From the NCBI RefSeq assembly GCF_044324785.1, contig NZ_CP172132.1: DNA of 4,394 bases. The stretch is one strand, 5' to 3'. The notes beneath the pieces were generated by a model, which saw only the letters and a program-made list of their open reading frames with translations, was not told the origin of the DNA and ran no database searches. Within the stretch, counting starts at the first letter, position 1, and every line of letters begins with the position of its first letter. Shown here in pieces: positions 3,259 to 3,324 of the stretch. A program made the position numbers and the translations under genes. Origin of the DNA: Escherichia coli. Lineage in GTDB: Bacteria > Pseudomonadota > Gammaproteobacteria > Enterobacterales > Enterobacteriaceae.

Positions 3259-3300
3259 AAACAAGTATTAAAAACAAGATCTTAAAAACAAGATCTAAAA
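3259..3300. repeat. AT-rich origin segment with three tandem AAAACAAG-type repeats, two carrying GATC
   Basis: AAAACAAGTATT, AAAAACAAGATCTT and AAAAACAAGATCT run in tandem; Dam GATC sites are at 3278-3281 and 3292-3295. Likely DNA unwinding element. Confidence 0.5.
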
Positions 3301-3315
3301 ACTTAACGGCGAGCC

Positions 3316-3324
3316 TGTGGAAAA
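3316..3324 (-). promoter_or_regulatory. DnaA box-like sequence
   Basis: The minus strand reads TTTTCCACA, which fits the relaxed DnaA consensus TTWTNCACA. A weaker second match, ATTTCCACA, is at 3414-3422 on the minus strand. Confidence 0.35.

Follow-up and report, generated by a model that had tools for sequence, protein, structure and literature searches.

Known systems and the replicon family

The small E. coli plasmid pIGWZ12 replicates autonomously by a Rep-dependent theta mechanism, at about 15 copies per chromosome, from an origin that lies upstream of rep and combines iterons with DnaA boxes and an A+T-rich region; its incompatibility is set by the iterons (PMC6856555). It is the prototype of the MOBQ41 / Col8282 / rep_cluster_1778 small E. 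coli plasmids, the group that also holds the replicon described here. The stretch of E. coli DNA analyzed (4,394 nt, hereafter the window) is, judging by its sequence, a small enterobacterial plasmid with a Rep_3 iteron replicon of the pIGWZ12/Col8282 type. Its initiator (Table 1) matches the Pfam families Rep3_N (8.4e-39, 133.6 bits) and Rep3_C (2e-19, 70 bits), and is up to 99.6% identical to Rep proteins from 4,074-bp E. coli and Salmonella plasmids. The 4.07-kb plasmids with near-identical Rep are typed as rep_cluster_1778/Col8282 and MOBQ, and the window origin is 92–94% identical to theirs.

The segment comprising the A-rich repeats and the adjoining DnaA box is the same sequence in the window and in the pIGWZ12 group, the box itself reading TTTTCCACA in the window versus TTATCCACA in the group. 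Members of the group differ from the window in having a mobC/mobA (MOBQ4) module after the origin; homology to them stops at window position 3553, beyond which the window has other cargo, including a STAXI RNA motif. By this comparison the window has the same replicon as the pIGWZ12 group, with different cargo and no mob module.

A more distant relative is the low-copy plasmid pSC101, whose RepA is 30% identical to the window Rep over 230 aa (E = 2e-31). The two are alike in having rep, iterons, an A-rich region and then a DnaA box, and in both the A-rich strand is the TGTGNATAA strand, the A/T skew being inverted relative to oriC. In pSC101 the A-rich region includes a 13-mer, GATCTATTCTTTT, by the DnaA box, which matches the oriC consensus perfectly; the region has one GATC, and the neighboring unit reads TATC. 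Unlike the window, pSC101 has three iterons and a longer RepA. It depends on an IHF site that lies between iterons and DnaA box (PMC4980987).

Another comparison is with RK2 oriV, an iteron origin that likewise combines DnaA boxes with tandem 13-mers in its DNA-unwinding element (DUE). Both the sequence and the number of the RK2 13-mers matter, and the initiator binds one of their strands (PMC4081077). RK2 is unlike the window in that its consensus, TAAACnTTnTTTT, lacks GATC, in its four repeats, and in its initiator, TrfA, which is not a close relative of the window Rep.

Organization of the origin

The order of parts (rep, DnaA box, four iterons, IHF consensus, repeats, DnaA box) is the pSC101 layout; their positions are given in Table 1.

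Table 1. Features of the rep gene and origin region (positions are those of the window).
Feature	Position	Strand	Basis or remark
rep gene	2341–3033	−	230-aa ORF, Rep_3 initiator, WH1 and WH2 domains
Inverted partial iteron (I1), between rep and iterons	3087–3100	+	79% complementary to iteron 4
DnaA box TTATTCACA, rep side of iterons	3121–3129	−	0 mismatches to TTWTNCACA
Four 17-nt iterons ACCTTAAATTCCTCCAC, starts 3131, 3152, 3175, 3196	3131–3212	+	Repeat searches
IHF consensus AATCAACATGTTA, between iterons and repeats	3224–3236	−	Exact WATCAANNNNTTR match; putative
A-rich tandem repeats, read as DNA-unwinding element	3257–3309	+	Tandem Repeats Finder and stability
Repeat unit 1 TAAAACAAGTATT	3257–3269	+	Without GATC
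Repeat unit 2 AAAAACAAGATCTT	3270–3283	+	Direct reading
AGATCT hexamer 1	3277–3282		Dam site GATC 3278–3281; 6-mer ATP-DnaA box consensus
Repeat unit 3 AAAAACAAGATCT	3284–3296	+	Direct reading
AGATCT hexamer 2	3291–3296		Dam site GATC 3292–3295; 6-mer ATP-DnaA box consensus
Partial repeat unit 4 AAAAACTTAACGG	3297–3309	+	Direct reading
G+C-rich spacer CGGCGAGCC, repeats to DnaA box	3307–3315		Sequence
DnaA box TTTTCCACA (TGTGGAAAA on + strand)	3316–3324	−	0 mismatches to TTWTNCACA
Second A-rich stretch (AAAACAAAAAATC..AAAAACAACAGG..), beyond DnaA box	3335–3375	+	Third member of repeat family D1
DnaA-box-like ATTTCCACA	3412–3420	−	1 mismatch to TTWTNCACA

The iterons have a period of 21–23, and their 44-nt double unit is 98–100% identical. 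By analogy with pSC101, the inverted partial iteron on their rep side may be a Rep operator for autoregulation. At the rep-side DnaA box, CTGTGAAT/CTGTGGAT is kept in 15 of 15 aligned relatives. The IHF consensus occurs twice in the window, against 0.32 expected, and the site between iterons and repeats is only partly conserved among the aligned relatives. Beyond the repeats, most relatives have a perfect TTATCCACA at the position of the second DnaA box, with TGTGGA[AT]AA invariant; the G+C-rich spacer before it keeps its position and varies in sequence. The second A-rich stretch is conserved in relatives and includes, on the minus strand, GATTTTTTGTTTT, with one mismatch to the oriC 13-mer consensus, while at the DnaA-box-like site farther on CCCTGTGGAAA is kept in all close relatives. 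A search for a promoter or terminator formed by the repeats found neither anywhere in 3000–3500, and an Rfam search found no structured RNA over them, its sole matches in the window lying elsewhere. A DnaA-trio arrangement (box, GC cluster, trinucleotide repeats) was also considered and dropped, as no 3-nt periodic TAG/TAA array can be seen on either strand.

Tandem Repeats Finder reports an array at 3258–3302 with a period of 13, 3.4 copies and 90% matches; read directly, the slightly longer block in Table 1 consists of about 3.5 tandem A-rich 13/14-nt repeats. A accounts for 30 of its 53 bases on the + strand, a strong A/T strand asymmetry. At −47.2 kcal/mol per 45 bp, the block has the lowest duplex stability in the origin (3034–3480) and the third lowest in the window, for which the mean is −59.7 (sd 5.9). 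The first-pass annotation had described two Dam sites inside tandem repeats in the A+T-rich region of an origin, next to a DnaA-box-like sequence, and each element of this description is borne out: the GATCs begin at 3278 and 3292, inside the array; the neighboring box has no mismatch to TTWTNCACA; and the surroundings include a Rep_3 gene, four iterons and the stability minimum of the origin.

The two GATCs in the repeats are 14 nt apart, and both lie within AGATCT, a hexamer that occurs in the window exactly twice, each time around one of them. GATC as such is not enriched: there are 17 in the window against 14.4 expected, and 56 of 200 shuffles reach 17. The 447-bp origin has three, two of them in the repeats and none in the iterons. 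Given this lack of enrichment, and given that the two sites in the repeats belong to a tandem duplication and are not independent, the GATCs do not exceed chance in this single sequence; the evidence for their mattering comes from the relatives.

Similarity to the oriC unwinding element

The E. coli oriC DUE contains 6-mer ATP-DnaA boxes, consensus AGATCT, which are bound in single-stranded form, while TTATT and TTGT elements on its T-rich strand are needed for keeping the origin open (PMC8235120, PMC4285127). DnaA on the boxes adjoining the DUE captures this T-rich strand (PMC5716108). The 6-mer ATP-DnaA box has so far been reported for E. coli oriC only (PMC4285127). Boxes of this Speck and Messer type are characterized by binding ATP-DnaA and not ADP-DnaA.

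The repeats of the window resemble this region closely. On the + strand, window positions 3265–3282 (GTATTAAAAACAAGATCT) are identical in 17 of 18 positions to oriC (GTATTAAAAAGAAGATCT); the local alignment score is 31, compared with 14.1 ± 2.2 for shuffled sequences, none of which (0/500) reached 31. Other sequence types of the same clade match oriC at the same place in 18 of 20 and 20 of 21 positions. The oriC segment used here was found at 100% identity and in single copy in 5424 of 5426 complete E. coli genomes; the part matched is the junction of the AT-cluster and 13-mer L, the left edge of the unwinding element. In the window, AGATCT is present in every full unit, as is TTGT on the T-rich (minus) strand. 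Read on that strand, the full units are GATCTTGTTTTTA (twice), with two mismatches each to the oriC 13-mer consensus GATCTnTTnTTTT, a loose match, since this pattern is frequent in an AT-rich plasmid (15 matches in the window at two mismatches or fewer).

The two regions are alike in having tandem 13-nt A/T-rich repeats starting GATCT, two perfect AGATCT hexamers, and a 9-mer box in the same orientation at a similar distance from the nearest of these (24 nt in the window; 27 nt from 13-mer R to box R1 in oriC). They differ in several respects: the TGTGGAWAA strand is T-rich in oriC and A-rich in the window; oriC has 11 GATCs versus two in the repeat block of the window; and the main initiator is a DnaA oligomer on 11–12 boxes in oriC, a plasmid Rep at iterons in the window.

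We consider it probable (roughly 0.65) that the repeats are the 13-mer-type DUE of a pSC101-like Rep_3 iteron origin, in an oriC-style spelling. They have the traits of such an element, being tandem 13/14-mers of lowest duplex stability, with A/T asymmetry and a place between iterons and a DnaA box. Opening at the repeats, binding of a single strand there by DnaA-ATP or Rep, and any effect of Dam and SeqA are what we infer from the observed anatomy, family membership, conservation pattern and oriC similarity. In the proposed sequence of events, Rep monomers would bind the four iterons and IHF would bend the DNA at its putative site (3224–3236), with host DnaA on the two 9-mer boxes that bracket the iteron-plus-repeat block (3121–3129 and 3316–3324). 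The easily melted A-rich block (3257–3309) would then open, and the opened strand could be captured and held by DnaA-ATP anchored at the adjoining 9-mer box, possibly together with Rep, leading to DnaB loading. Capture by DnaA-ATP is proposed because AGATCT and TTGT are the elements that E. coli DnaA-ATP recognizes in the single-stranded oriC DUE. A part for Rep has parallels in the plasmid initiators TrfA and RepE, each of which binds its DUE repeats on one strand (PMC4081077).

Three features of the sequences bear on how far the oriC model can be carried over. Since the A/T skew is inverted, the geometry of capture by box-bound DnaA cannot be copied simply from oriC. The argument from two elements, AGATCT and TTGT, is limited to the window's own sequence type, since TTGT is lost in the other two main types (see below). 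Finally, the exact site of opening is made uncertain by the second A-rich block beyond the DnaA box.

Conservation among close relatives

Relatives were collected in three sets: 15 plasmid origins from PLSDB, which were aligned; origins adjoining Rep relatives in representative genomes; and metagenomic loci found with a repeat-free anchor (AAAACTTAAC N7 CTGTGGA), among the matches listed. Of the 55 anchor matches without a Rep homologue in the locus, nearly all were left out, being matches by chance in unrelated contigs; five (L117, L158, L182, L208 and L217) are short contigs on which the family origin is plainly present. L118 and L189 were likewise left out as chance matches.

Both AGATCT hexamers are intact in 93 of 95 clade origins, or 29 of 31 haplotypes (Dickeya L025 included), hexamer 1 being kept in 93 and hexamer 2 in 94 of the 95, all among the matches listed; these figures are counts only, as alignment of A-runs is ambiguous and lineages are not independent; the sample was conditioned on the anchor and on homology. 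The first-pass annotation had held that its idea of methylation control would fail if replication were unaffected by Dam status and the GATC sites were not conserved among relatives; among these close ones, the sites are conserved.

The sequence around the hexamers is much less constant. At least eight forms of the inter-hexamer sequence, in three lengths, put the GATCs 12, 13 or 14 nt apart. Among the aligned relatives, iteron specificity types number at least five and the iteron-side spacer is poorly conserved, yet the repeat-plus-DnaA-box segment is highly conserved across the 15 PLSDB origins. Of the three main types, two (B and C) have kept AGATCT and lost the TTGT element; in their repeats the older part of the unit (AAAACAAG) is reduced to plain runs of A. 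Five divergent origins (Dickeya L025, Symbiopectobacterium L026 and the metagenomic L103, L112 and L142; Rep about 75% identical) have both hexamers exactly, with differing flanks on both sides and differing spacers. This is the pattern that would be expected if the hexamers themselves were constrained.

There are two exceptions. In L194 one GATC is lost (AAGATTAT). The repeats of L211, with the sequence TAAAACAAGTAAAAAACAAAAAAAACAAGATAAAAACTTAAC, contain no GATC; a perfect DnaA box comes after them. L211 is otherwise an intact replicon of the same family, with four perfect iterons and an intact rep (73% identity).

Conservation of this kind could arise with no function specific to GATC, if a young module of repeats and DnaA box had spread by recombination among co-resident small plasmids, one chance GATC having been copied by tandem duplication and carried along. 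The stretch from the repeats to beyond the DnaA box is indeed nearly identical in many E. coli, Salmonella and Klebsiella plasmids with differing iterons and rep, as modular exchange would predict; the window taken alone has no excess of GATC, and relatives without GATC replicate. We nevertheless think this very unlikely, since the five divergent origins keep both hexamers exactly amid other flanks and spacers, and since the two copies of the hexamer within one plasmid have different flanks, which indicates that they have not been homogenized as a unit.

Deeper relatives and the age of the repeat

Outside this clade, the position of the repeats is kept and their spelling shifts. Plasmids of Moellerella, Photorhabdus, Xenorhabdus and Providencia (Rep 57–65% identical) have GAAAACAAGATAAAAACAAGAAAAACAAGTTAAAAAA before CCTGTGGATAAAT; GATC is absent from the repeats of the first three, and Providencia has a single AAGATCA. 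Plasmids of Pasteurellaceae and Neisseria (Rep 38–44% identical) have GAAAACAAGATAAAAATATAAAA, again without GATC in the homologous Pasteurellaceae repeats. In relatives from Halomonadaceae, Pseudomonas and Chromatiales (Rep 32–38% identical) the sequence is CCTAAAAGGGGAAAAGGGGAAAAGGACAGAAAAG, and in some of them a GC cluster and a DnaA box come after it. More generally, repeats of the AAAACAAG type occupy the same origin position where Rep is 38–73% identical, and repeats of the AAAAGGGG type where it is 32–38% identical. The presence of an A-tract block starting CYTAAAA across such deep relatives makes it an old feature of this Rep_3 subfamily. By the same comparison, GATC is a recent spelling of the A-tract repeat, one substitution away from AAGATA. 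The resulting series (AAAAGGGG to AAAACAAG to AAGATCT) illustrates how the sequence of a DUE can shift across a Rep_3 subfamily with its position and strand bias kept.

A missing methylase does not explain the sister clades without GATC: Enterobacterales and Pasteurellales possess Dam and SeqA.

One possibility raised by the deep conservation is that the repeats serve mainly as a site at which the plasmid's own Rep binds a single strand sequence-specifically, with AGATCT an incidental, clade-specific spelling. CYTAAAA-initial A-tract repeats are found in the same place throughout the Rep subfamily (Rep 32–100% identical), in hosts ranging from Enterobacterales to Neisseria, Halomonas and Pseudomonas, so that conservation tracks the Rep family and not one host. 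There is precedent in TrfA and RepE, which bind one DUE strand sequence-specifically (at the RK2 13-mers and the F 8-mers, respectively; PMC4081077), and one base change is enough to derive GATC from the ancestral AAGATA. One argument against such a site is that unchanged repeats are common to plasmids with at least five Rep/iteron specificity types; constancy despite this divergence points to a host factor, or to a conserved surface of Rep, in place of the part that determines its specificity. Nor would it account for the fixation of AGATCT in the clade alongside decay of the older AAAACAAG motif in types B and C. A site of this kind is in our view unlikely to be the main role of the repeats.

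Possible role of methylation

For an iteron origin to have GATC-bearing 13-mers next to a DnaA box is textbook knowledge, and the origin of this family has already been described. The repeats are an ordinary origin part, for which control by methylation is possible.

P1 oriR has five GATCs in 7-nt repeats. Together with pColV-K30 REPI and oriCII of Vibrio cholerae, it belongs to the DnaA-requiring iteron origins at which initiation is reported to be affected by GATC methylation (work cited in PMC4081077 and PMC2865523; PMC6090056). In V. cholerae oriCII there is a GATC in every iteron, and GATC density is high (PMC6090056, PMC2865523). The window differs from P1 and oriCII in having just two GATCs in its repeats and none in its iterons, and in having relatives without any. 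The first-pass annotation had noted that methylation-dependent control of initiation is known for some iteron origins and could apply here. The first part agrees with these cases, and with oriC itself (PMC2865523, PMC4081077, PMC6090056).

As to the second part, the proposal would be that the GATCs are kept because Dam methylation controls initiation, full methylation being needed for opening or favoring it, and the hemimethylated copy being sequestered by SeqA until Dam re-methylates it, with an eclipse period as the result, as in oriC and P1 oriR. Several observations are consistent with this. The GATCs are almost invariant in a clade where the sequence and length between them vary, and the clade's hosts are all Dam-positive enterobacteria. 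SeqA binding needs two nearby GATCs (PMC5145175), and these are 12–14 nt apart. Methylated adenines in 13-mers are expected to promote separation of the strands, and SeqA bound to a DUE prevents opening (PMC5043065). There is also precedent for SeqA binding at the core of the P1 origin and in the 13-mer region of oriC, and for a requirement of P1 for methylated DNA (PMC4081077, PMC2865523).

Against it, the conserved unit is the whole of AGATCT, whose flanking A and T are needed by neither Dam nor SeqA, and GATC density is ordinary, in the window as in its origin. In vitro, phasing of the GATCs by integral helical turns favors efficient binding by SeqA (PMC5145175); here the spacing drifts between 12, 13 and 14 nt, none of which amounts to integral turns. 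An intact replicon of the same family (L211) has no GATC and another (L194) has one, and homologous origins in Morganellaceae and Pasteurellaceae have none in their repeats, apart from the AAGATCA of Providencia. The hosts in both of these families are Dam-positive. A further objection is copy number: control acting once per cycle does not lend itself to correcting plasmid copy number (PMC2865523), and the prototype is maintained at about 15 copies for each chromosome (PMC6856555). In oriC, as an aside, the GATCs likewise lie out of helical phase.

Control of initiation by Dam and SeqA as the reason for keeping the GATCs therefore seems rather unlikely to us, as does a real effect of the two on this origin. 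What stands of the earlier suggestion is that the Dam targets are there, conserved in the clade and with precedents elsewhere; conservation at the level of the hexamer, relatives without GATC, drifting spacing and multicopy replication all weigh on the other side. Methylation as an intrinsic requirement of this type of origin is argued against by the GATC-less L211, by the GATC-less sister clades and by the lack of GATC enrichment. Conservation of the whole hexamer is better explained by DnaA-ATP recognition than by Dam and SeqA.

Returning to the repeats as a DUE recognized by DnaA-ATP, methylation would most likely be a secondary overlay. Since AGATCT contains GATC, methylation of both hexamers by Dam in the enterobacterial hosts is near-certain. 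Just after replication in a Dam-positive host, the hexamers are hemimethylated. Full methylation might slightly ease melting, while SeqA may bind the hemimethylated pair and for a short time keep that copy from opening again; sequestration at the repeats is plausible.

A more specific proposal is that the AGATCT pair was a clade-specific acquisition by which a generic A-tract DUE came to imitate the left edge of the host's oriC DUE (GGTATTAAAAAGAAGATCTA), coupling plasmid initiation to DnaA-ATP and to Dam/SeqA hemimethylation. We regard this as doubtful. If it were true, L211 and the GATC-less plasmids of Morganellaceae and Pasteurellaceae would be natural controls. Should the pair link initiation to either DnaA-ATP or Dam/SeqA, this would exemplify how cell-cycle signals of the chromosome can be borrowed by a multicopy plasmid.

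Current views of iteron-plasmid initiation are not overturned by these results. Their additions are modest: conservation at the level of the hexamer, the 17-of-18 match to the edge of the oriC DUE, the existence of natural relatives without GATC, and the deep conservation of an A-tract DUE. They also have some value for annotation, in placing the DUE, DnaA boxes, putative IHF site and iterons in a very common family of small enterobacterial plasmids. The origin is found in 463 PLSDB records, and derivatives of pIGWZ12 serve as a vector backbone.

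Variation and conservation of the origin repeats

Natural members of the origin family do not all carry the two GATC sites found in the A-rich tandem repeats of the window: one variant (L194) has a single site (AAGATTAT), and another (L211, positions 2400-2900) has none, with its rep gene intact and four iterons. A metagenome contig (L173, MAVC01000034.1) encodes a Rep 100% identical to that of the window, and its segment of repeats and DnaA box is also identical. This contig is probably the same plasmid, since its length of 4433 nt, less a 39-nt assembly overlap, would equal 4394.

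Relatives from Photorhabdus and Xenorhabdus (L028, L029, and L033; also L030, L031, L036, and L038) have A-rich repeats without GATC; these same loci often have GATCGATC, or one GATC (gtcaGATCGATCacaaaaaaggatgtcgc), about 20 nt past the DnaA box. They also partly keep a flank, aaaaggatgtcgcaaac..gtttgctcc, that is common to pSC101 and a Moellerella plasmid (L016). The repeats themselves resemble part of the E. coli chromosomal origin: window 3265-3282 (GTATTAAAAACAAGATCT) is identical at 17 of 18 positions to the oriC junction between the AT-cluster and 13-mer L, with 18/20 and 20/21 identities in the origins of other clade types. This likeness may stem either from captured host sequence or from convergence.

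Conservation of the A-tract unwinding element, with its CYTAAAA start, is deep, reaching distant Rep relatives in Halomonadaceae, Pseudomonas, and Chromatiales (L060-L101). Origins in this group share one layout, in which a spacer of about 40 nt separates the iterons from CCTAAAAGGGGAAAAGGGGAAAAGGACAGAAAAG and a GC cluster comes next; a DnaA box accompanies the GC cluster in some of these origins only.

Unusual host records

The complete chromosome record of Providencia vermicola (NZ_CP048796.1; L044) includes a Rep relative (63% identical) and an origin with just one recognizable iteron, which may be a decayed or integrated plasmid. Col8282-type plasmid contigs are listed in the genome collection under Pseudomonas sp. 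(L022), Clostridiales MAGs (L023/L024), and Chryseobacterium sp. (L042); these labels most likely reflect mis-binning or contamination rather than true hosts.

Other features of the plasmid

The plasmid appears mosaic in composition (see table). Because homology to the 4.07-kb pIGWZ12-type plasmids ends at 3553, the window is without the mobC/mobA (MOBQ4) module that usually follows the origin. Within the remainder, window 3556-3945 matches many unannotated cryptic E. coli plasmids of 2.3-3.1 kb, at 90-96%.

Features of the window outside the origin and rep gene
Feature	Window position	Strand	Remarks
STAXI RNA motif (RF01728)	4098-4271	+	Strong Rfam match, 78.9 bits, E 4.6e-16
EFASI RNA (RF02957)	357-510	+	Rfam match below threshold, 48.6 bits, E 1e-7
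Region outside pIGWZ12-type homology	3554-4394 and 1-557		4.07-kb plasmid homology stops at 3553
51-nt inverted repeat	1197-1247 / 1459-1509		Arms 92% complementary, 211 nt between them

Two RNA families are matched, with Rfam gathering scores of 40.5 (STAXI) and 51.2 (EFASI). The STAXI match takes in a tandem pair of units, each about 58 nt long (gtcgctccggcgaccaccaatg.tccat...gaggagcgccttcgggtgg); the sub-threshold EFASI match spans the full length of its model.

The inverted repeat looks like a large hairpin or a miniature transposable element. A shorter stretch similar to it lies near window 2085-2105.
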